DNA of 64,000 nt, taken from Baekduia sp. (GTDB taxonomy: Bacteria > Actinomycetota > Thermoleophilia > Solirubrobacterales > Solirubrobacteraceae). Under the pieces are notes generated by a model, which did no database searches, was not told the origin of the DNA, and worked only from the letters and a program-made list of their open reading frames with translations. The stretch is from assembly GCA_037045385.1 (NCBI GenBank), contig JBAOHN010000008.1, forward strand, positions 754,481 through 818,480, read 5' to 3'. How positions within the stretch are numbered: position 1 is the stretch's first letter; each line of letters opens with the position of its first letter. Positions 47,819 through 64,000 of this stretch are shown one piece after another. Made by a program: the position numbers and the translations under genes.

Positions 47819-48112
47819 CTAGCCGCGGCGGGTGGTCAAAGTCCGGCCCTTGGCCTGCTTGCCGGAGATCGTGACACGCAGCTTGGTACGCAGCGACGGC
47901 GTCTTCTTCAGTTTGATCGTGCCGGTTGCGCGACATGCGCCGTTCTTGGTCGCGAGGCGCAGCGTGGTCTTGTAGCTGCGGCCGCCGAAGGCGGTGGTCG
48001 CCTTTACGGTGCCGCTGCAGCGCTTGCCCTTCTTGAGCGTGAGCTTGGCGTTGAGTGTGATCGTGCGTCCGGAGAGGCGGGCCTCGATCACCGGCGGGAT
48101 GACGACCGGCCG
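47819..48112 (-). repeat. conserved 3' module, copy in P8
   Basis: Same module with scattered substitutions. Confidence 0.8.
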
Positions 48113-49714
48113 GTTGTCGTCATCGCCCGAGTCGTTATCGCTCGGCGGAGCGGGCGGGTCGCTGACGGTGATCGTGCGGGTCGTCGTGGTCGGTTGACCT
48201 CTGCCGTCGGTCGCGCGGACGGTGACCGTGTAGGTGCCCCCGGCCGCGTAGGTGTGGCCGGCCTGCTCGCCGGTCGCGGCGCTGCCGTCGCCGAACTCCC
48301 AGCGCACCGACGCGACATCGGACCAGCGGTCGTCGGCCGAAACCGACACCGGGACGCGCTCGCCGGCGGTCGCGGCTGCCGGGACGCTCAGGTCGCTGAG
48401 CGCCGGGCCTGCGCCGTCACCGAGGGAGACCATCACCGTTCCGTCGGACTGTGCCCAGGCCATCACGACGTTGCCCTCGTCGTCGCCGCTGAGGCCCAAG
48501 CCGGCCATCGCGTAGACCGGCTCACCGTCGAAGCTCTTGGCCATCGACCACTCGCCGCTGTCCGGATCCCAGGCGGCCACGCCGGCTGTGACAGACATGA
48601 TCGATGGGCCGAACGGCAACGCGGCGTAGACGGTCCCGTCGGGCCGGGCGGCCGGTTCGAGCATGCCGCTGAAGATGCCGGTGCCGAGCGGTGCGACCTG
48701 CGCCGACCACCCGGTCTCGCCCGCTCGAAGCACGCTGGCGTAGCCGACGAGGTCGGCGCCGGTGCCCGCGAGGCCGGTCTGGACGAAGTCCCCGCGTGCC
48801 GTCAGCGTCAGGCCTGGGGCCGCGCCCGACTGGTAGATGAGGTCGGGCGGGTTCCAGCTGCCGTCGGCCGAGCGGACGACACGCCGGGCTCCGACGTCGC
48901 CGCCCATCTGCTCGAGCCAGAGCAGCACGGCGGTTCCATCGTCGCGGATCCTGCCTGCGGTCGGGAAGAAGCCGGCGGCTTCCCCGGAGATCGTCGTGAC
49001 GTCACCCCACGCGGCATCCGTTGTCGACCGTGACCTGGCGCGCATCACATGGTGTCCGGAGCCGCCGCTCGTGTCGGTCCAGGCGGCGATCTGCTCGCCG
49101 TCGCCAGCCGCGTAGACCCGGGCGCCGCCCGCGTTGTCGGTTCCGGGGGAGGCGTAGGCCGGCGTGTCGAAGCCCACGGCGCCCCGCTGGCGGACCGCCA
49201 CCGCAGCCCGTGAGGTCGACCCGTCGTTCTCGGTCCAGGCGGCAAAGACCCGGCCCGCGCCGTCGGCCGCGAGCGAAGGCCCCCACGAGCCGTTCACGTC
49301 TCCGAGCTGGTCGGACTCCCACTGCTGCGAGTCGGCGAGGAGCATGGCGACCGTCACCCTCGTGACGCCGCCGTTCGAGACTTGGCCGGCGATGAGGAAG
49401 TCGCCGTCAGAGGAGGCGACGGCGGTGATGTTGCTGACGTCGTCGCCGGTGAGGACCGGCTCCTGGGGCCGCCAATCGCCGCCGGGGTCGCGGACCGCGA
49501 CCATGAACGACTGCCCCAGCTCCCAGCCTGCGATCAGCCGGCCCTGCGGCGTCGCTCGCACGTTGACCGGGGCGTTGTCGAGGGTCCCGACCGCCTGCGG
49601 CGTCTCCCAGACCGGCTGCGGCAGCTTGGCGGCGGCCTGCGCGGTGGCAGCCGTCGCTGTCAGCGCGGCCGTAGCCACGAGCGAGCAGAGCAGGGGGAAC
49701 CGGCGCGCAGGCAT
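47819..49714 (-). CDS. array paralog P8 (promoter-proximal)
   Basis: Signal peptide MPARRFPLLCSLVATAALTATAATAQA, PKD WEFGDGSAATGEQAGHTYAAGGTYTVTVRATD, conserved tail. TAG stop, whereas the others use TGA. Confidence 0.85.
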   Translation of the reverse strand: MPARRFPLLCSLVATAALTATAATAQAAAKLPQPVWETPQAVGTLDNAPVNVRATPQGRLIAGWELGQSFMVAVRDPGGDWRPQEPVLTGDDVSNITAVASSDGDFLIAGQVSNGGVTRVTVAMLLADSQQWESDQLGDVNGSWGPSLAADGAGRVFAAWTENDGSTSRAAVAVRQRGAVGFDTPAYASPGTDNAGGARVYAAGDGEQIAAWTDTSGGSGHHVMRARSRSTTDAAWGDVTTISGEAAGFFPTAGRIRDDGTAVLLWLEQMGGDVGARRVVRSADGSWNPPDLIYQSGAAPGLTLTARGDFVQTGLAGTGADLVGYASVLRAGETGWSAQVAPLGTGIFSGMLEPAARPDGTVYAALPFGPSIMSVTAGVAAWDPDSGEWSMAKSFDGEPVYAMAGLGLSGDDEGNVVMAWAQSDGTVMVSLGDGAGPALSDLSVPAAATAGERVPVSVSADDRWSDVASVRWEFGDGSAATGEQAGHTYAAGGTYTVTVRATDGRGQPTTTTRTITVSDPPAPPSDNDSGDDDNRPVVIPPVIEARLSGRTITLNAKLTLKKGKRCSGTVKATTAFGGRSYKTTLRLATKNGACRATGTIKLKKTPSLRTKLRVTISGKQAKGRTLTTRRG

Positions 49715-56531: not shown

Positions 56532-58277
56532 TCAGGTGCGCTTCGCGAGCACGGCGCGAGCCGCGATCTGCCTGCCGTCGATCGACAGCTTGACCGCCGC
56601 GGACCTCGCCGGCGCCTTCCGCAGCTTGATCGTGCCCTTGGCCACGCACGCGCTCCTGCCGGCGATCGTCGTTCGCACCAGCCGCAGCGTGGCCCGGTAC
56701 GTACTGCCGCCCACCCGCGTGCGTCCTCGAACCGTGCCCGAGCACCGGGCGGACGCCCGCAGGGCGACTCGAGCGTTGACCGTCAGCGTCTTGCCTTTGA
56801 GGACGAGGTCGAATGCGGGGCGCAGGGCGAGGAGGTGAGGCGCGGGGGCCGGCGCCGGCGTCGGCGCGGGCTCCGGGGCGGTCTGCTCCGGCGCGCTCGC
56901 CGGCGGCTCGCCGGCCGGCGGCCGGGCGCTGCGGTCACCGGTGAGGTCGGCGGCGTAGACGGGGTTGCCGGGGCCGGCGTCGTTCCAGGCGAACGCGAGA
57001 TCGCCGAAGCGGTTGCCGTCGATCGACGCCGGGCCGACGTCGAACGAGGCGTTCGAGACGATCTCGGTCGGCGCCGAGAACGCCGCGCCGAACGTGGGGC
57101 GCGTGGCGTGACCGGCGCCAAAGACGGTCATGTCCGGCGAGTAGCTCCAGAGCGCGTTGGTCGTGCCCGAGATCGTCGGGAAGACCTTGCCGTAGGCCGA
57201 CACGGCGCCGTACGGCGACATCAGCGCGAGCCCGGTCCACGAGCCTGCGGCCGGCCGATCGGCGCTGAAGTTCGCCATCAGCGCGCCGGCCTCGGGGGCG
57301 TTCAGCTTCATCACGGTAACTGTGACGTTGCTGTCCTCATCGGCGACGACCTGGCTGACCCACACGCGCTCGCCCGGCTGCGTGATCGAAACCGGGGTGC
57401 CCCAGCCGCCGCTGGCGCTGCGGGTGTTGGCGCGGAGCGTGTCGGGGCCGTCGCCGCCGGTTTCGTCGAGGTCGTAGACGGCGGTGACCTCACCGTTCGG
57501 CGCGGCGGCGACGTCGATGTTGAACGACCCGTACGCGAGGTCCTCGACGGTCTGCGGAGGATCCCAGTCCGCCGCCGCCGACCCGAGCCGCGCGCTCGTC
57601 ACCGTCGCCGCGTCCGGCTGCTGGTGCCGGCGCGAGTAGACGGCCGTGACGTCGCCTGTGTCGTCGGCGTCGAGCGCGAACGCCTGGAACGTGTCGTCCC
57701 CACCGCCGTCGTCGTCGACGACCAGCTCGGGACCCCAACCGCCGTCGAAGACGCGTGAGCGCATCGCCGCCGAGTAGTCGCCCCAGACTGCGACGAACGT
57801 GCCGTCGGGGCGGCCGACGATGTCGCGGTCGCCGATGTTGCCGGCCCCGTCGAGCTGCTCGGCCGGGCCGAAGGTCGCCGAGCCGGCAGGCCTGACCGCC
57901 GCCTCGATGTGGGTCTGGGGATTGGTGAGCCAGGTGACCGCGACCGAACCGTCCCCTGCCGCAGCGATCCGATAGTCGTTGCGGCTGACGTTCGTGCCGT
58001 CCGCGGAGATCGGCTCAGGGTCGCTCCAGGTGGTCTCGCCGGCGAGCCGGGTCGCGGCGGTCATGCGCCAGTCGCTTCCGTCCTGCTGGTACCAGATGAC
58101 GGTCGTCGAGCCGTCTGGTGCTGAGACGACCTGGGGGCCGTAGACGGTCGCCCCGTCATCCGAGATCTGGACGGGCGCGCGCCATCCACCGGCGGCCGCG
58201 GCCTGTGGCAGCACGACACAGGCGAGCAGGGCGGCGAGGACGGTCGCGCGCAGGCGGGCGTGGGCAGACGCAGGCAT
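56532..58277 (-). CDS. dispersed family member P9: repeat domain plus Pro linker plus diverged C-terminal domain, no PKD
   Basis: Signal peptide ..VLAALLACVVLPQAAAAG, blade-like repeats (..PDGSTTVIWYQ.., ..GDGSVAVTW..). Tail ..LKGKTLTVNARVALRASARCSGTVRGRTRVGGSTYRATLRL..ACVAKGTIKLRK.. is alignable to the array tail. Confidence 0.8.
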   Translation of the reverse strand: MPASAHARLRATVLAALLACVVLPQAAAAGGWRAPVQISDDGATVYGPQVVSAPDGSTTVIWYQQDGSDWRMTAATRLAGETTWSDPEPISADGTNVSRNDYRIAAAGDGSVAVTWLTNPQTHIEAAVRPAGSATFGPAEQLDGAGNIGDRDIVGRPDGTFVAVWGDYSAAMRSRVFDGGWGPELVVDDDGGGDDTFQAFALDADDTGDVTAVYSRRHQQPDAATVTSARLGSAAADWDPPQTVEDLAYGSFNIDVAAAPNGEVTAVYDLDETGGDGPDTLRANTRSASGGWGTPVSITQPGERVWVSQVVADEDSNVTVTVMKLNAPEAGALMANFSADRPAAGSWTGLALMSPYGAVSAYGKVFPTISGTTNALWSYSPDMTVFGAGHATRPTFGAAFSAPTEIVSNASFDVGPASIDGNRFGDLAFAWNDAGPGNPVYAADLTGDRSARPPAGEPPASAPEQTAPEPAPTPAPAPAPHLLALRPAFDLVLKGKTLTVNARVALRASARCSGTVRGRTRVGGSTYRATLRLVRTTIAGRSACVAKGTIKLRKAPARSAAVKLSIDGRQIAARAVLAKRT

Positions 58278-58332
58278 GAGCGTTCCATCGGCAGCTGCGT
58301 CCGATCGGCCTGTCTGCGAGGGTGAGGATGCG

Positions 58333-58953
58333 ATGGATGTCCACGAGCTCGTCGCGCACTACGCCGCCGGGCTGTTCCCGATGGACGACGGAGATGCCGA
58401 TCCGCCGCCGCCCGAGCTGCCGTGGTGGGCGTGCGACCCGCGCGCCGTCTTCGAGCTCGACGACGCGTCGTTGGACGCGTTCGACCGGCGGCTGCGGCGC
58501 TCGCTGCGGGCCGCCCAGCCCGGCTGGCGCCTGACGACCGACACGAATTTCGAGGCGGTGCTCGACCGCTGCGCGCGCCCTCGCGGCGAAGGCGACGGCG
58601 TCTGGCTGACGCCACGAATGCGCGAGCTGTACCGGACGCTGCGCGAGGCCGGGCTCGCCCACACGTTCCAGCTCGTCGACGACAACGACGCGCTCGTCGC
58701 CGGCATCGTCTGCGTCGCGCTCGGCCGCGCAGCGATGCTCGAGTCGATGTGCCACACCGTCCCGCACGCCGGCAACGTGCTGCTCGCGCGGACGCTGCGA
58801 GCGCTCGCCGGTGCCGGCTGCCAGCTCTGTGACATCCAGACACCGACCGACCACACGCTGCGGCTCGGCGCACGGCTGATCCCGCGCGCCGAGTACGAGG
58901 CGCGGCTCGCCGCGGCGCTCAGGCCGCCCGGGACGGCGGACTCAGCCGGCTGA
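58333..58953 (+). CDS. aat: leucyl/phenylalanyl-tRNA--protein transferase
   Basis: ..YAAGLFPM..WW.CDPRAV.. and ..GESMFH-like ..LESMCH.. pattern. ATG at 58333 chosen. Confidence 0.7.
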   Translation: MDVHELVAHYAAGLFPMDDGDADPPPPELPWWACDPRAVFELDDASLDAFDRRLRRSLRAAQPGWRLTTDTNFEAVLDRCARPRGEGDGVWLTPRMRELYRTLREAGLAHTFQLVDDNDALVAGIVCVALGRAAMLESMCHTVPHAGNVLLARTLRALAGAGCQLCDIQTPTDHTLRLGARLIPRAEYEARLAAALRPPGTADSAG

Positions 58954-60387
58954 GCGGTGCAGGTCGACGACTGAGGCGGCGTCCTCGTCCTCGTCGTCGG
59001 GCGGCCGCGGGTCGTCCTCGGGCTGGTGGCGCGTGACCCAGTCCTCGAGCGCCGACGGAAGCCGCGTGCGGCGATTGCCCCAGTGGACCATCACCTGCGA
59101 GCGGGCGACGAGGTCGTGCAGGCAGCGGAGGTCGTCGCGAAGCAGGCCGATCAGGAAGCCGATGCCCAGCACCGTGCTGAAGGGGAAGGCGAGCGCGCGG
59201 ACGGCCGCGTGCCTGGCGCTGAGCGGGCCACCGCTCGTCGAGGAGATCCGCAGCCCCATCAGCGCCTTGCCTGGCGTGCGGCCTGTGATCGTGACCGAGC
59301 CCCAGAGGTAGAGGAACCACCAGACCATGTAGACGCCGAACCAGATCGGGCCGCCGGTCGCGTAGTCCGAGAGCTGCCGGTTCGTGAACAGCTCGAACAG
59401 CGACCGCGCGAGCAGGTTGCCTGCGCTGAACAGCAGCGCGACCATCGCGGCGTCGGCGAAGAAGGCGAGGCTGCGCGCGAGCGGTCCGGCGGGCCAGCCG
59501 GAGGCGTCGACCTTGCCGTCGACCCGGACGGCCGGGCGGACCGGCCGCCGCGCGACGCGGTCGGCAGCGCGCTCGATCAGCACATCGATCCCGAGGATCT
59601 GGCGGCGGGCCATGTCGAGCGTCGCCGAAGCGACGCTCGTCGTCGCCTCGCTGACGATCTTGTCGATCTCGGCGCGCTGGACGATCGCCGGGATGTCGAC
59701 CGATTCGATCTGCTTGTCGAGGTCGATCCGCGAGACGAGCGCATCGATGTCGATCCGGTCGACGACGGCCGCGATGTCGATCCGCTCGATCACGCCGGGC
59801 ACGTCGATTCGCCGCACGACCTCCGCGACGTCGATCCGCTCGATCACGCCCGGCACATCGATCCGCTCGACGACGTCGGCCACGTCGATCCGGCGGACCA
59901 CGTCAGCCACATCGATCCGCTTGACCACATCGTCGACGTCGATCCCGCGTACGAGCTCGGCGACATCGATCCGGCCGACGAGCGCGGCGATGTCGATGCC
60001 GCCGACCAGCTCGTCGAGGTCGATCCGCGCCACCAGCGCGTTCATGTCGATCCGCGAGACCAGCGCGTTCACGTCGACGCCGGCGAGCAGCCCGTTGAGG
60101 TCGAGGTCTGCGAGCAGCGCGTTGACGTCGGCGCCGTCGAGCAGCGCGTTCACGTCGATCCGGGTCAGCAGCTCGTCGACGTCGACCTGTGCGAGCAGTG
60201 CGTTGATGTCGATCCGGCGGACGAGGTCGTCGATGTCGAGCCGCTGCGCCAGCGAATCGACGTCGATCCGCTCGACGAGCGCCTCGACGTCGACGCGCTC
60301 GATCACTTGGTCGGGGTCGACGGCGTCGACCGCCGGCGAGATCAGCGCGCCGAGCAGGCGGCTCGCGGGGGATCGCTCCTCAGCCAT
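58942..60387 (-). CDS. RDD-family membrane protein with N-terminal nonapeptide-repeat array
   Basis: 24 tandem 9-aa units (R-I-D-V-x-x-L/V-V-x) at aa 31-246, then a TM region with ..ITGRTPGKALMGLR.. typical of RDD domains. Confidence 0.8.
   Translation of the reverse strand: MAEERSPASRLLGALISPAVDAVDPDQVIERVDVEALVERIDVDSLAQRLDIDDLVRRIDINALLAQVDVDELLTRIDVNALLDGADVNALLADLDLNGLLAGVDVNALVSRIDMNALVARIDLDELVGGIDIAALVGRIDVAELVRGIDVDDVVKRIDVADVVRRIDVADVVERIDVPGVIERIDVAEVVRRIDVPGVIERIDIAAVVDRIDIDALVSRIDLDKQIESVDIPAIVQRAEIDKIVSEATTSVASATLDMARRQILGIDVLIERAADRVARRPVRPAVRVDGKVDASGWPAGPLARSLAFFADAAMVALLFSAGNLLARSLFELFTNRQLSDYATGGPIWFGVYMVWWFLYLWGSVTITGRTPGKALMGLRISSTSGGPLSARHAAVRALAFPFSTVLGIGFLIGLLRDDLRCLHDLVARSQVMVHWGNRRTRLPSALEDWVTRHQPEDDPRPPDDEDEDAASVVDLHRSAG
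59650..60297 (-). repeat. 24 tandem 27-bp coding repeats (nonapeptide array)
   Basis: RVDVEALVE RIDVDSLAQ RLDIDDLVR ... RIDLDKQIE SVDIPAIVQ RAEIDKIVS. The period was checked against the codon index. Confidence 0.85.
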
Positions 60388-60396
60388 GCGGCGACA

Positions 60397-62070
60397 CTAC
60401 GCGACCGGCGCGTGCCGGTCGACGATCGCGCGGGTGTCGAACCCCGCCGGCAGCGTGCCGTAGTGCAGGCCGCCGTCGCCCGACAGCCTCGTCGCCACGA
60501 ACGCGTCGGCGACCTGCTGCGGCGCGTGACGGAGCAGCAGCGACGCCTGCAGCGCCACTGCCAGCTTCTCGACGACCCGGCGCGCCCGAACCTCGAGCGT
60601 CGCCGCGTCGGTGAACTCACCGGGCAGCGCGGCGACGAACGCGTCGTAGCGCGCGTCGGCGCCGGTCGCCTCGCCGAGCTCGTCGAGCAGCACCTCCAGG
60701 GAGGCCGGCGCCTTGATCAGCGCGCGCAGCGTGTCGAGCGCCATGATGTTGCCCGAGCCCTCCCAGATCGAGCACAGCGGAGCCTCGCGGTAGATCCGCG
60801 GCATCCCGGTGTCCTCGACGTAGCCCGGCCCACCGAGGCACTCCATCGCCTCGAACGCGTGGTTTGGGAAGCGCTTGCAGACGTGGTACTTCGCGACGGG
60901 CGTCGCCAGCCGGGCGAACAGCGCCGCCCGCTCGTCGCCGGCGGCGACCTCGTCGTAGGCGCGGCAGAGCCGCAACGCGAGCGCGGTCGCCGCTTCGGAC
61001 TCGACCGCGAGGTCGGCGAGCACGGTCGTCATCAGCGGCTGGTCGATCAGCGTCTTGCCGAAGGCGCTGCGGTGCTGCGTGTGCCAGATCGCCATCGCGG
61101 TCGCGGCGCGCATCCCGGCCGCAGAGCCGATCACGCAGTCGAGCCGCGTGTGGGCGACCATCTCGATGATCGTCGCAACTCCTCTGCCGGGCTCGCCGAG
61201 CATCCGGCCCCAGGCGCCGCGCAGCTCGATCTCCGAGCTCGCGTTCGAGTGGTTGCCGAGCTTGTCCTTGAGCCGCTGGATCTGGAAGCCGCGGTTGCGC
61301 TCGCCGTCGGGCGTGAACTGCGGCACCGCAAAGCAGCAGAGGCCCTCGTCGGTGTAGGCGAGCATCAGGAAGAGATCCGACATCGGCGCGCTGCAGAACC
61401 ACTTGTGCCCGGTCAGGAGGTGCTCGGCGCCCTCGCCGCCGCCGTTCAACGGCTCGGCGCGGGTCGTGTTGGCGCGCACGTCCGAGCCGCCCTGCTTCTC
61501 GGTCATCGACATCCCGCAGATCGCGCCGGGCTTCTCGCTCGCGGGGCGGAGCGCGCCGTCGTAGCCGGTCGCGGTCAGCCGCGGGATCCACTCCTCGGCG
61601 ATCTCGGGCGTGTGCCGAAGCGCCGGGATCGCGGCGAACGTCATCGTGATCGGGCAGCCGAACCCGGCCTCGGCCTGCGTGCCGGACATGTAGATCGCCG
61701 CGCGCGCGACGTGAGCCCCCGGTCGCGGGTCGTTCCACGGCAGCGCGTGCATCTCGTCGGCGACGCCGCGCGCCATCAGTCGGTGGTAGTCGGGGTGGTA
61801 GTCGACGCGGTCGATCCGCTCGCCGGTCGCGTTGTGCGAGCTGAACCGCGGCTTGTCGCGGTTGGCCTCCGCGCCCCACTGCTGCGGCTCGCCGCCCCAG
61901 AACGCACCGACGCCGGCGGCGCGTTCGTGCGCCCAGCCGCCGCCCTCGCGAGCGACCCCCTCGACCAGCGCGGCGTGGTCGAGGTAGAGGTTGCGGCCCG
62001 TCAGCGGCGGGACCTGGTTCGTGACGTCGTGGGTGGCTTGGTCGGCGCTGCCTGAGACGGTCATCGACAT
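60397..62070 (-). CDS. AidB-like acyl-CoA dehydrogenase
   Basis: 557 aa, ..MTEKQGGSDV.., ..KWFCSAP.., ..IWEGSGNI.. motifs. Confidence 0.85.
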   Translation of the reverse strand: MSMTVSGSADQATHDVTNQVPPLTGRNLYLDHAALVEGVAREGGGWAHERAAGVGAFWGGEPQQWGAEANRDKPRFSSHNATGERIDRVDYHPDYHRLMARGVADEMHALPWNDPRPGAHVARAAIYMSGTQAEAGFGCPITMTFAAIPALRHTPEIAEEWIPRLTATGYDGALRPASEKPGAICGMSMTEKQGGSDVRANTTRAEPLNGGGEGAEHLLTGHKWFCSAPMSDLFLMLAYTDEGLCCFAVPQFTPDGERNRGFQIQRLKDKLGNHSNASSEIELRGAWGRMLGEPGRGVATIIEMVAHTRLDCVIGSAAGMRAATAMAIWHTQHRSAFGKTLIDQPLMTTVLADLAVESEAATALALRLCRAYDEVAAGDERAALFARLATPVAKYHVCKRFPNHAFEAMECLGGPGYVEDTGMPRIYREAPLCSIWEGSGNIMALDTLRALIKAPASLEVLLDELGEATGADARYDAFVAALPGEFTDAATLEVRARRVVEKLAVALQASLLLRHAPQQVADAFVATRLSGDGGLHYGTLPAGFDTRAIVDRHAPVA

Positions 62071-62102: not shown

Positions 62103-62396
62103 TCAGCCGCGGCGCGTCGTCAGCGTCCGGCTCTTGACCTGTTTGCCGGAGACGGAGATCCGCAGCTTGGTCCGCAGGCTCGGCGTCTTCTTGAGGCTGA
62201 TCGTGCCGGTGCCGCGGCAGGCGCCGCCGATGGTCTTCAGCTTCAGCGTCGTGCGGTAGGAGCGGCCGCCGAACGCGGTCGTCGCCTTGACCGTGCCGCT
62301 ACAGCGGGCGCCCTTCTTCAAGGTCACCTTCGCGTTCAGCGAGATCGTCCGGCCGGCGAGCCGCGCCTCGATCACCGGCGCGAGCGTCTGCTTGGG
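62103..62396 (-). repeat. conserved 3' module, copy in P10
   Basis: Same module, about 12 kb away from the array. Confidence 0.8.
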
Positions 62397-64000
62397 CTTC
62401 TGCTCCGGTTCGTCGGCATCGTCCGGCGCCGGGGGCGGGTCGCTGACCGTCACGTGGCGTGTCTCGGTCGCGCTGTTGCCGGCGGTGTCTGTGACCGTGA
62501 CGGTCACTGTGTAGGTGCCGGCGGTCGGGTAGGCGTGGGTGGCCGACGCGCCCGAGCCGGTCTCGCCGTCACCGAAGGCCCACGAGACCGAGCCGACGTC
62601 CGACCAGCGGTCGGTCGCCGAGACGGAGACCGGGACCGGGTCGCCGGTCGTCGCCGACGACGGGACCGAGACGGCCGAGACCACCGGCGCCGTCCCGTCG
62701 CCGGCCGCGAAGCCGACCCCGTGGTTGCCCGGCGTCGTGTTCTGTGACCACATCGTCGCGAGGTCGCCGTCCGCCGTCAGGGCAGCGACCGGGCTCGAGC
62801 CGTGGCCGGTCATCGAGAAGGCGTTGAAGACGGTCGCGCTTGCGCCCTCGACGTTCTCGAGCGGACCCCACGAGCCGGTCTGCGAAGACCACTCGGTCGT
62901 GGCGATGCCGAAGTCGGAGATATCGGCGATCGAAGCGCCGTCTGCGAAAACGAGGCGCACGACGCCGCGATCGTTCGAGGTCAGCGTGATCGGTGCGCCT
63001 GCGGTGCCCCGCGGCGTCCGGGCGGCCGTGGACCAGCTGCCCGAACCGGGTTCCACTACCGAGTACCAGGACTCCGCGGCGCCGGTACCGAGGTCGAGCG
63101 CCTCCCATGTCACGACGATGCGGCCCGCCGCGTCGATCGCGAGCTGCGGGATCAGCTGCAACGCGCCGCTGAGCTGGTGGTCGTCACCGAGCGAGCCGTC
63201 GGCGCCGATCGTGCGCGCGAGCGCCTCGAAGTTGCCGTTGACCGAGACGACCGCGGCGGAGCCGTCGTTCTTGAGGACGGCGTCGACCATGCCGGTACCG
63301 CCGCTTGCGACGTTCGCGAAGACCTCGGTCGGCGTGCCTGACCACGTCTCAGAACCGGCGTCCCAGCGCGAGACGTAGCCCTTGGTGACGCCAGAGGTCT
63401 GGCCTTGGGAGTAGAGGATCGCGTCGCCCGACGCGTTGAAGTCGAGAGCGAGCGAGCCGCCAACTGCGTCGACCGTCGGCACGGTGACCGGCGTGCCCCA
63501 ATCCGCGGAGTTGCGTGTGCGCGTGGCGGTGCGGATCTCGTTCGGACCCGAACCCGGCACGACGTAGGCGGCGGTCACGGTGCCGTTCGGCGCCGCGGCA
63601 AAGCCGAGTCCGTAGACGCTGGTGGCGAGCGTCTCGGTGTCGCTCCAGGTGGTCGAGCCGGCGAGCATCGTCGAGGTTCTGAGGTCGGTGAAGTTCGGCG
63701 GCGCCCAGAAGGCGGTCGTGTTGCCGTCCTTGTCGACGACGAGGTCGAAGATCGCAACGTCCTCACCGGCGGGCGACACGTCCTGCGGAGCGTCCCAGGA
63801 GTCGCCGGCTCCGGAGAACCGCCGCACGACGAGCACGTCGTGACCGTTCTTGTGCTCGGCCCACGCAGCCGCGATTGTGCCGTCGTCGCCGGCCGAGATC
63901 CGGTTGTTGACCGACGCGTTCGAGAGCTGGGCGACGTCCGACCCGGGCGCGTTCAGCAGCTCCATCTCGGTCCAGCCGAACGCGCCGGCGGTGGCGGGGA
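62103..64000 (-). CDS. dispersed family member P10 (5' end outside the window)
   Basis: Frame open to the window edge. Blade-like repeats, PKD WAFGDGETGSGASATHAYPTAGTYTVTVTVTD, conserved tail ..VIEARLAGRTISLNAKV..TLTTRRG. Confidence 0.85.
   Translation of the reverse strand, partial: PATAGAFGWTEMELLNAPGSDVAQLSNASVNNRISAGDDGTIAAAWAEHKNGHDVLVVRRFSGAGDSWDAPQDVSPAGEDVAIFDLVVDKDGNTTAFWAPPNFTDLRTSTMLAGSTTWSDTETLATSVYGLGFAAAPNGTVTAAYVVPGSGPNEIRTATRTRNSADWGTPVTVPTVDAVGGSLALDFNASGDAILYSQGQTSGVTKGYVSRWDAGSETWSGTPTEVFANVASGGTGMVDAVLKNDGSAAVVSVNGNFEALARTIGADGSLGDDHQLSGALQLIPQLAIDAAGRIVVTWEALDLGTGAAESWYSVVEPGSGSWSTAARTPRGTAGAPITLTSNDRGVVRLVFADGASIADISDFGIATTEWSSQTGSWGPLENVEGASATVFNAFSMTGHGSSPVAALTADGDLATMWSQNTTPGNHGVGFAAGDGTAPVVSAVSVPSSATTGDPVPVSVSATDRWSDVGSVSWAFGDGETGSGASATHAYPTAGTYTVTVTVTDTAGNSATETRHVTVSDPPPAPDDADEPEQKPKQTLAPVIEARLAGRTISLNAKVTLKKGARCSGTVKATTAFGGRSYRTTLKLKTIGGACRGTGTISLKKTPSLRTKLRISVSGKQVKSRTLTTRRG

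Follow-up and report, generated by a model that had tools for sequence, protein, structure and literature searches.

Nine-residue repeats are a feature of the RTX proteins, in which the nonapeptide GGxGxDxUx forms a Ca2+-binding parallel beta-roll in secreted toxins and enzymes. Proteins of the alpha-solenoid type (TPR, HEAT, PPR, Sel1 etc.) are built of units of ~30–45 residues, and a 9-residue unit is, to our knowledge, far below the length of any that has been described. The pentapeptide-repeat and hexapeptide (LbH) beta-helices have a period of 5 or 6, and the canonical coiled coil, a continuous helix, has one of 7 or 11. The RDD domain is a widespread but poorly understood membrane domain, with only two disparate reports on its function, one of an antiporter and the other of a protease inhibitor. 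An RDD protein of Halobacillus andaensis is reported to be a Na+(Li+,K+)/H+ antiporter, with D154, R124, R129 and D158 shown to be essential for antiport (PMC5996927). The other, Bacillus subtilis SppI/YteJ, is an inhibitor of the SppA protease and has no salt or pH phenotype (PMC7568657). Common to these and to the protein considered here are a bona fide RDD domain, its R/D/D residues and three hydrophobic helices. However, neither of the characterised proteins has the N-terminal nonapeptide array that distinguishes the present one, which is encoded within a window of 64,000 nts from Baekduia sp. (contig JBAOHN010000008.1, positions 754,481 to 818,480). Its parts and its flanking genes are as follows, in window coordinates.

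58276..58953, forward strand: leucyl/phenylalanyl-tRNA-protein transferase (Aat) gene, convergent (Pfam Leu_Phe_trans, E 9e-37)
58942..60387, reverse strand: repeat-RDD fusion gene, 481 aa, from ORF and translation; stop codon 58942-58944
58945..59103, reverse strand: C-terminal tail, residues 429-481 (AF2 confidence; K+R count)
59104..59493, reverse strand: RDD membrane domain, residues 299-428 (Pfam PF06271)
59494..59544, reverse strand: Arg/Lys/Pro-rich linker, residues 282-298 (alignments of P0312, a stand-alone repeat protein, and of its partner; K+R count)
59545..59649, reverse strand: cap, residues 247-281 (121-sequence alignment; AF2; stand-alone proteins)
59650..60324, reverse strand: nonapeptide array, residues 22-246, 25 units (TRF, 9-mer cutting, AF2)
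59650-60297, reverse strand: strict array, residues 31-246, 24 units (9-mers cut from residue 31)
60325..60387, reverse strand: lead-in, residues 1-21, MAEERSPASRLLGALISPAVD (AF2 helix 7-15; alignment to the P0312 lead-in)
60397..62070, reverse strand: AidB-like acyl-CoA dehydrogenase gene, upstream and co-directional (Pfam AidB_N and Acyl-CoA_dh)

The Pfam RDD match, an in-frame GC3 of 0.94 (overall GC is 0.70) and more than 330 homologs, the best with 73% identity, establish that the repeat-RDD gene is real, and the long forward-strand ORFs that run across it are the usual antisense artefacts of high-GC DNA. Since the AidB-like stop codon is separated from the repeat-RDD start by only 9 nts, co-transcription of the two genes is likely. 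The aat gene overlaps the other, 3′ end by 12 nts. This neighbourhood is kept in a 71%-identical relative, but was not seen at the loci of distant homologs. It was considered as a functional clue and rejected, as both neighbours accompany the gene only in its closest relative; with nothing but the RDD partner discussed below conserved alongside the repeat, genomic context gives no indication of function. Secreted PKD-domain proteins are encoded by neighbouring genes. The source genome also carries a second RDD gene, without repeats.

From residue 31 the array proceeds through 24 successive 9-residue units without a single insertion or deletion, and the extent given for it in an earlier note on this DNA (residues 31–246) is exact. 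Under a looser rule it begins sooner, since AVDPDQVIE (22–30) and GALISPAVD (13–21) are also in register, and the count becomes 25–26. The lead-in, the last nine residues of which are thus already in repeat register, holds a short conserved hydrophobic helix (LLxALxxxxVD) ahead of the array. The local consensus is R-I-D-V-x-x-L-V-x. R occupies the first position in 17 of the 24 units. The conserved Asp that had been claimed for position 3 is there in 23 units (the other has E), and the hydrophobic character claimed for positions 2, 4, 7 and 8 holds for all (I/V/L/M/A) except that one unit has Q at position 7. Pro is confined to position 5, as in RIDVPGVIE (twice) and SVDIPAIVQ, and Gly is also found at positions 1 and 9. 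With 40 Asp and 12 Glu to 21 Arg and 3 Lys, the array has a net charge of −28. At the DNA level Tandem Repeats Finder detects 21.4 copies of a 27-nt period at 59716–60293. When the N-terminal 290 residues were shuffled 2000 times with their composition preserved, no in-phase run exceeded 6 units, compared with the 26 observed.

The repeat had not been recognised when first noticed, and searches of curated families bear this out. Pfam and NCBIfam scans of the present protein and of 105–134 family members gave no model covering it, and no description of it was found in the literature on the RDD family, on RDD with repeats or on nonapeptide repeats. The sole PDB sequence match is to chain 0q of 9e5c (E 3.5e-23, in nine overlapping stretches), a ‘LIM zinc-binding domain-containing protein’ with a long 9-residue repeat region of the (A/T)E(T/A)VEA... 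type. Though it resembles the array in its period and in its acidic and aliphatic pattern, this chain lacks the conserved R-x-D motif and an RDD domain. It was rejected as a homolog: its alignments tolerate shifts of whole units, being driven by V/E periodicity. Foldseek against the PDB did not return 9e5c, and a literature search on that entry code found nothing relevant. The same structure search gave no match at E≤10 for a model of the repeat alone, and for the full model its best was 7t92_A at E 8e-3 with a TM score of 0.2–0.3.

The repeat constitutes a large undescribed family. The repeat region alone matches 1143 cluster representatives at E≤1e-3, and 341 remain when the threshold is tightened to E≤1e-10. 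Named homologs, few in number, on which the taxonomic spread rests, come from Frankiaceae, Actinomycetes, Ilumatobacteraceae, Microthrixaceae and one Acidobacteriota MAG. Related loci were also sought in genome contigs with a single protein, and none was found there. Across 5517 units from 356 proteins the consensus is R-V-D-V-D-A-L-V-x, with R at 70% for position 1, V, I or L at 92% for position 2, D at 90% for position 3, V, L or I at 89% for position 4, D or N at 76% for position 5, A at 50% for position 6, L, V or I at 93% for position 7 and V, L or I at 88% for position 8, position 9 being free. Gly reaches at most 8% at any position, and the information content exceeds 2.2 bits at five of the nine. 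In the homologs examined a single 9-residue phase per protein holds nearly all motif-matching units; the 9-residue register is nearly always kept in the family, with spacings of 10 and 13 residues in a subset of stand-alone proteins.

Family members have between 7 and 29 units and, in a comparison of the kind the earlier note had called for, fused forms between 9 and 29. The number varies even between relatives that are ~70% identical: by the looser count P0003 and P0004 have 22 units, the present protein 26 and P0002 29. Such differences are what a hypervariable contingency locus, prone to slippage, or a disordered low-complexity spacer with no defined fold would show. However, the 27-nt units share only 9–24 of their 27 bases, no word of more than 21 nts recurs exactly in the array DNA, and self-identity at shifts of 27 nts is 60–75%. 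The array DNA is old and diverged and is therefore unlikely to be a slippage-prone locus. The information content and the phase retained in the fused homologs examined also speak against this reading, as does the uniform AF2 confidence (about 80–88), and it is the least credible of those considered. The suggestion that unit number could vary by slippage survives in its first half only: the number does vary, shifting over evolutionary time and not as a contingency switch, while ongoing slippage is unlikely. Units that have diverged in DNA yet retain the pattern indicate that selection acts on the protein and not on the DNA.

From its strict phasing the array had been suspected of being a solenoid or fibre-like stalk, and structure prediction supports the former: 25 short helices, without strands, follow one another in a regular, solenoid-like chain, in which each unit consists of a 7-residue helix and a 2-residue Ile-Asp turn (AF2). 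Two AF2 runs, one on the full-length protein and the other on the repeat alone, agree on this; pLDDT over the array is 59–81 in the former and 79–88 in the latter (83.6 for the model). The pTM of the rod is low, 0.27, as expected of an elongated shape. The array fits textbook helix-capping rules, with Asp as N-cap, Pro in the first helical turn (position 5) and Gly at position 1. This fit of the sequence is independent of AF2. Like the alpha-solenoids, the predicted array has tandem helices in an elongated stack, hydrophobic inside and charged at the surface, but its unit is a single 7-residue helix and nine residues in all. Its strict period of 9 sets it apart from the pentapeptide-repeat and LbH beta-helices.

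Alternatively, the breaks predicted by AF2 may be artefactual and the array one continuous alpha-helix of ~225 residues, assembling beneath the membrane into multi-stranded fibres or sheets of a coiled-coil-like kind. Two units are 18 residues, or 5 turns, so two hydrophobic seams would result on opposite faces. Helix overwhelmingly dominates the prediction for this region, its hydrophobic positions 4, 7 and 8 have i, i+3, i+4 spacing, and the period of 9 is kept family-wide, as a register-sensitive fibre would need. However, a period of 9 is not that of a canonical coiled coil, and simple geometric reasoning has the hydrophobic residues encircling the helix with no classical seam. The Asp recurring from unit to unit, 90% conserved and straight after a hydrophobic residue, is a capping signature and not one of a coiled-coil core. 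Pro-Gly and Pro-Ala within units, with Gly at positions 1 and 9, also tell against a continuous helix, and both AF2 runs break it at every I-D (pLDDT about 80–88). The continuous helix is accordingly rated as unlikely, and a helix interrupted once per unit is preferred.

An RDD-type transmembrane domain had been placed after the array, and PF06271 does match there, with E 2.2e-16 and 60.8 bits (the cut-off is 24.1) over profile positions 1–136 of 137. Residues R305, D312 and D425 are shared by 90% or more of 121 homologs. The predicted helices are 302–335, 347–368 and 391–416, the last one kinked and either a single span or re-entrant (AF2, pLDDT 85–98). The protein thus passes the HMM threshold and has the conserved R, D and D after which the family is named and the approximately three hydrophobic helices of this small integral membrane domain. 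The tail has an Arg-rich stretch and then an acidic Pro-rich part, with pLDDT 35–54 beyond about residue 460.

The distribution of K and R around the hydrophobic segments is informative for topology: 5 precede TM1 (flank 279–301), 1 is in loop 1, 3 are in loop 2 and 6 follow the third segment. A signal peptide or N-terminal transmembrane segment was sought in the repeat-RDD protein and none was found, and most stand-alone repeat proteins also have neither a transmembrane segment nor a leader. With no signal peptide, flanks that are positive inside and stand-alone forms that look soluble, the array probably lies in the cytoplasm. An extracellular stalk or adhesin-like spacer projecting from the membrane would have in its favour that long phased repeats in variable number are typical of surface stalks, and that the PKD-domain proteins encoded nearby are secreted. 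It would require the export of ~300 residues of large net negative charge with no leader, against the Arg/Lys-rich flank ahead of TM1, which points to the cytoplasm, and the neighbourhood in question is not conserved in distant homologs. Of the two locations that had been left open for a stalk, the cytoplasmic one is thus the most likely, and the extracellular one is very improbable.

The most instructive feature of the family is its association with RDD, which a view of this one sequence could not have revealed. Among the best 134 repeat matches, 41 have Pfam RDD, and all except 4 of the remaining 93 have no Pfam domain. In 7 of the 7 stand-alone repeat genes examined, the gene overlaps a small RDD gene immediately downstream, which encodes 170–190 aa. 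In a sample of the phylum an RDD match is immediately downstream and on the same strand in 22 of 24 repeat-carrying genomes; RDD was found in 7 of 14 control genomes. The stand-alone P0312 aligns to residues 11–281 of the present protein and its RDD neighbour to residues 297–443, and the present gene is the fused form of this two-part module, which occurs in a minority of Actinomycetota-type genomes. The linker, falling between the two alignments, is the fusion junction of the two modules.

The cap belongs to the repeat module and not to RDD, since stand-alone repeat proteins carry it at their C-terminus; residues 241–281 align to the C-terminal end of P0312. It is part of a long predicted helix, 241–278 (AF2, pLDDT 81–94), and has the pattern IVA-x-ST...LD-x-x-R-x-Q...R-x-V-x-R-x-LRR that follows the array; a D258-x-x-R261-R262-Q263 motif and R281 are near-invariant in the 121-sequence alignment. 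Coupling to RDD thus appears to be obligate for the repeat module, whether by fusion or through a translationally coupled upstream gene. As the arm is fused to RDD or encoded right before one, the two parts very probably work together.

Given that one RDD protein is reported as a cation/proton antiporter, the array could be a divalent-cation (Ca2+/Mg2+) binding repeat, like RTX or with EF-hand-like D-x-D sites, which folds or changes shape on binding metal and so acts as a cation sensor or buffer for an RDD cation/proton transporter. Units in the family offer two carboxylate or amide residues each (positions 3 and 5), and the net charge is strongly negative. With RTX the array shares the nine-residue period, a conserved Asp, long uninterrupted arrays and variable unit number. 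However, as the earlier note had already remarked, it is not RTX-like: there is no Gly-rich turn, the GGxGxDxUx consensus is absent, and neither Pfam nor the PDB sequence search matched any RTX family or protein to it. AF2 predicts helices and not a beta-roll, and the array is N-terminal and probably lies in the cytoplasm, with its very low free Ca2+, whereas RTX repeats are secreted. Furthermore, the position-3 Asp is accounted for structurally as an N-cap, and SppI, also an RDD protein, is without a salt or pH phenotype. A Na+/H+ exchanger gene does adjoin the module in 2–3 of 7 metagenome loci, partly syntenic with each other, but a PF00999 (Na+/H+ exchanger) gene is within 5 kb in only 2 of the 24 genomes. 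The genomic link to Na+/H+ exchange is weak, and a dedicated cation-binding repeat is considered improbable.

The interpretation favoured here, with moderate confidence, is of a fused two-part module in which an elongated, acidic cytoplasmic arm is docked on RDD and has a regulatory or scaffolding role. Each unit would fold as a 7-residue alpha-helix and a 2-residue turn, with the invariant Asp of position 3 as N-cap, the hydrophobic residue of position 2 (N′) and the Leu/Val of position 7 (N4) forming a hydrophobic staple, and Arg or Gly at position 1 ending the helix. Positions 4, 7 and 8 would provide the buried face, and the units would stack into a cytoplasmic rod or solenoid that is thin, rigid and strongly acidic. 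Docking of this rod by the cap helix would be on the cytoplasmic face of RDD, where the conserved R, D and D would sit. The arm, tunable in length, might then regulate the membrane domain or scaffold its partners, perhaps through cations or basic ligands bound at the Asp pairs that recur regularly along it; this regulatory or scaffolding role is put forward with low certainty. On balance doubtful is the proposal that the repeat represents a new fold class, a solenoid of 9-residue units that are each a single N-capped 7-residue helix, and with it a cytoplasmic partner dedicated to the gating or regulation of RDD domains.

If that proposal is true, the 9-residue unit would be the shortest alpha-solenoid unit known, and the arm might be, for example, a polyanionic sensor of cations or ligands whose response is set by its length. 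A phased 9-residue helix-turn repeat without a look-alike in the PDB would widen the known solenoid architectures, and a simple rod of tunable length could interest protein designers. More than 1000 protein clusters labelled ‘hypothetical’ or ‘RDD family’ could gain a domain model. For RDD itself, an obligate partner that is both fused and translationally coupled is a classic Rosetta-stone clue and provides a testable pair, and the split and fused forms would, if the proposal holds, be the first handle on the role of RDD in this subfamily.

The repeat-RDD gene encodes a protein that, when cut into 9-mers, yields 24 consecutive nine-residue units from residue 31 with no insertion or deletion. 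The gene and the two degenerate units directly before the strict ones are:

58942..60387, minus strand: repeat-RDD gene, 481-aa product (ORF translation)
residues 22-30: degenerate in-register unit AVDPDQVIE
residues 13-21: degenerate in-register unit GALISPAVD

Since both degenerate units are in register, a looser unit rule counts 26 units without a break over residues 13-246. Across the strict units, position 1 is Arg in 17 of 24 and Gly in four, and position 3 is Asp in all except one, where it is Glu. Hydrophobic residues occupy position 2 (I/V/L/A), position 4 (V/I/L/M), position 7 (L/V/I, with Gln once) and position 8 (V/L/I/A). Of the 225 residues of the array, 40 are Asp and 12 Glu against 21 Arg and 3 Lys, a strongly acidic composition. 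When the N-terminal 290 residues were shuffled 2000 times with their composition preserved, no in-phase run exceeded 6; Tandem Repeats Finder detected the 27-nt period at the DNA level and Pfam places the RDD domain at residues 299-428 (E 2.2e-16), so that the 24 phased nonapeptide units, at the coordinates given (59650-60297), and the RDD domain described in the earlier note are borne out. With GC3 in frame of 0.94 against an overall GC of 0.70, and homologs numbering in the hundreds, the gene is real and the long plus-strand ORFs across it are antisense artefacts of a high-GC genome. Its 3′ end overlaps the convergent leucyl/phenylalanyl-tRNA-protein transferase gene (Aat) by 12 nt (58942-58953), a pairing that recurs at the locus of a 71%-identical relative (L013). 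Three genes for large, mutually paralogous secreted proteins also lie in the window, and several such PKD genes surround the same AidB / repeat-RDD / Aat block in the closest relative:

62103-63965, minus strand: large secreted protein with PKD domain (Pfam, E 3.5e-18)
56532-58277, minus strand: large secreted protein with no Pfam match, its build resembling the PKD paralog
47819-49714, minus strand: large secreted protein paralogous to the products of the other two

The repeat arm has no counterpart in Pfam, NCBIfam or the PDB, and no description of the nonapeptide repeat was found in the literature searched. RDD is the sole Pfam match of the window protein, NCBIfam gives none, and when 134 and 105 family members were scanned, neither collection had a model covering the repeat. 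The sole PDB sequence match is 9e5c chain 0q, a ‘LIM zinc-binding domain-containing protein’ in which acidic/aliphatic repeats of 9 residues also occur; its nine overlapping alignments slide along the array by whole units, so we take them to reflect shared periodicity and not homology. The initial impression of an unrecognised repeat unlike RTX is thus upheld. The array does not belong to the RTX, pentapeptide, hexapeptide or canonical coiled-coil repeats, since it lacks a defining feature of each. Though it has a 9-residue period and Asp in common with the RTX nonapeptide, as an RTX-like metal-binding repeat would, the array lacks Gly turns, is predicted to be helical and is probably cytoplasmic. 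The membrane part is of a known kind: all three RDD family features tested were found in it, so the protein is a true RDD family member.

Two AlphaFold2 runs, one of the full-length protein with 121 homologs and the other of just the repeat region with 105 relatives, both fused and stand-alone, agree on a unit made of a 7-residue helix (positions 4 to 1′) and a 2-residue Ile-Asp turn (positions 2-3). Mean pLDDT is 78.7 for the full-length model (59-81 in the array, 85-98 in the RDD domain) and 83.6 for the repeat-only model (uniformly 79-88). The array is modelled as 25 helices in a row, followed by a long helix (241-278) and then the RDD helices; this regular row agrees with the solenoid that had been supposed from the strict phasing. 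Established helix-capping rules allow the unit to be judged from its sequence, which independently of AlphaFold2 supports the helix-turn reading. The unit Asp falls at the predicted helix N-cap, the hydrophobic position 2 (N′) and the Leu/Val of position 7 (N4) have hydrophobic-staple spacing, Pro is restricted to position 5 in the first helical turn, Gly at positions 1 and 9 marks the C-terminal end, and positions 4, 7 and 8 (i, i+3, i+4) make one hydrophobic face. This capping signature, the Pro and Gly residues and the predicted models all disfavour a continuous bifaceted helix forming fibres. To our knowledge the predicted unit, one 7-residue helix per nine residues, is far shorter than that of any described alpha-solenoid. 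Foldseek found no PDB structure resembling the repeat-only model even at E<=10. Its best match for the full model was marginal, pairing the membrane part with TM domains of the peroxisomal Pex2/10/12 ubiquitin-ligase retro-translocon (7t92 chains A-C; E 8e-3, TM 0.2-0.3); the resemblance is probably one shared by helical bundles in general.

The repeat forms a module that is coupled to RDD. Among the 134 best repeat-bearing representatives of <=720 aa, 41 have a Pfam RDD domain; all but four of the other 93 are without any Pfam domain, and most of them are without a hydrophobic segment. At each of the seven stand-alone loci looked up, all on long contigs, the next same-strand gene overlaps the repeat gene by 4-14 nt, and in six it encodes an RDD protein of 168-187 aa (at the remaining locus, L018, gene calling splits the downstream gene in two, and the second piece has the RDD match). 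A Pfam RDD match lies directly downstream on the same strand in 22 of the 24 repeat-carrying genomes of the phylum sample; of the two exceptions, one is truncated where its contig stops and the other gave no RDD match. The stand-alone repeat protein P0312 aligns to residues 11-281 of the window protein (lead-in, units and cap), and its downstream RDD neighbour to residues 297-443 (32% identity, E 5e-12). Taken together, these counts, neighbours and alignments show the window protein to be the fused form of a two-gene module, joined at an Arg/Pro-rich linker (282-298). In an RDD-domain tree one branch (support 82/70) separates the six split partners from 50 fused proteins, a pattern that one fusion or fission could account for, although the fused proteins sampled lean towards the query's relatives. 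Repeat-less RDD paralogs are usual in each repeat-carrying genome, the window's own included:

G000:C11:93007-93420, plus strand, outside the window: second RDD gene (Pfam E 3.3e-25)

This second gene outscores the window RDD domain against Pfam and the repeat search matched nothing beside it; the repeat-bearing RDD is therefore a specialised paralog.

Searched by itself against 1.84 billion cluster representatives, the repeat region has 1143 matches at E<=1e-3, of which 341 reach E<=1e-10. Giant proteins are also matched (P0240, 3407 aa; P0124, 4738 aa; P0161, 3996 aa), P0240 having ~71 motif-matching units mostly at 9-residue spacing; they may be either true relatives or periodicity matches. 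A logo of 5517 units in 356 proteins reads, in %, R70 / V,I,L 92 / D90 / V,L,I 89 / D,N 76 / A50 / L,V,I 93 / V,L,I 88 / variable. The comparison of orthologs that had been proposed does reveal differing unit number: fused proteins have 9-29 units (median 17-18), stand-alone proteins 7-21 (median 14), and protein length tracks this number (r = 0.79). Nearly all motif-matching units of each fused homolog inspected share one 9-residue phase, so length changes in whole units. A subset of stand-alone proteins (P0129, P0160, P0162, P0170, P0175, P0180, P0182, P0237 and others) has one 10- and one 13-residue spacing within an otherwise 9-residue array, which may be a conserved kink or insertion.

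The DNA units of the window gene are old. Compared pairwise, the 27-nt units have 9-24 bases in common, and the two RIDVPGVIE units are set apart by three synonymous differences. No exact repeated word exceeds 21 nt, and at 27-nt shifts the sequence is 60-75% identical to itself. As the pattern is kept in such diverged units, it is maintained by selection on the protein; the suggested variation by slippage is unlikely, and this is no contingency locus prone to it. Both the divergence and the high information content per position speak against a contingency locus or a disordered spacer.

Neither a signal peptide nor an N-terminal TM helix is present in the window protein. Arg and Lys number 5 in the flank before TM1, 1 in loop 1, 3 in loop 2 and 6 after the third hydrophobic segment, and the three positively charged segments each include a short strand in the AlphaFold2 prediction. 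Their charge suggests a cytoplasmic position for all three and a possibly re-entrant third hydrophobic segment. Of the two places proposed earlier for the stalk, we infer the cytoplasmic one; an extracellular stalk is disfavoured by the lack of a leader, by flanks that obey the positive-inside rule and by stand-alone versions that mostly look like soluble proteins.

The distribution is patchy. Within the genus of the window, only 3 of the 25 genomes have full-length orthologs, and an even sample of the phylum has the repeat in 24 of 401 genomes and 17 of 248 genera. Named homologs come from MAGs of Frankiaceae, Actinomycetes, Ilumatobacteraceae and Microthrixaceae, with one labelled Acidobacteriota.

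Na+(Li+,K+)/H+ antiport has been reported for one RDD protein (PMC5996927), and inhibition of the SppA protease, without a salt or pH phenotype, for another (PMC7568657). Only 2 of the 24 genomes have a Na_H_Exchanger gene at a distance of <=5 kb, and such a gene is close by in 2-3 of the seven metagenome loci, two of them syntenic, a weak, non-zero enrichment that echoes the reported antiporter activity:

L015 2702-3724 and L018 2720-3910: Na+/H+ exchanger genes beside or near the repeat/RDD pair (PF00999)
L016 1-1106: NhaA gene near the pair
G120:C273:3581-4711 and G421:C1:2700718-2701827: Na+/H+ exchanger genes near the pair (PF00999)

Cation or basic-ligand binding by the regularly spaced D-x-D/N pairs would be an attractive sub-hypothesis, with weak support from this context. 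What is established is the architecture, the link with RDD and the conservation, the last extending to D258-x-x-R261-R262-Q263 and R281 of the cap helix. The array, a predicted rod or solenoid of N-capped mini-helices, would be docked by this conserved helix on the cytoplasmic RDD face, the site of R305, D312 and D425. The repeat arm would be a tandem-repeat solenoid on a known, functionally obscure membrane domain, its acidic, length-tunable form serving as a putative regulator of, or scaffold for, the activity of that domain.
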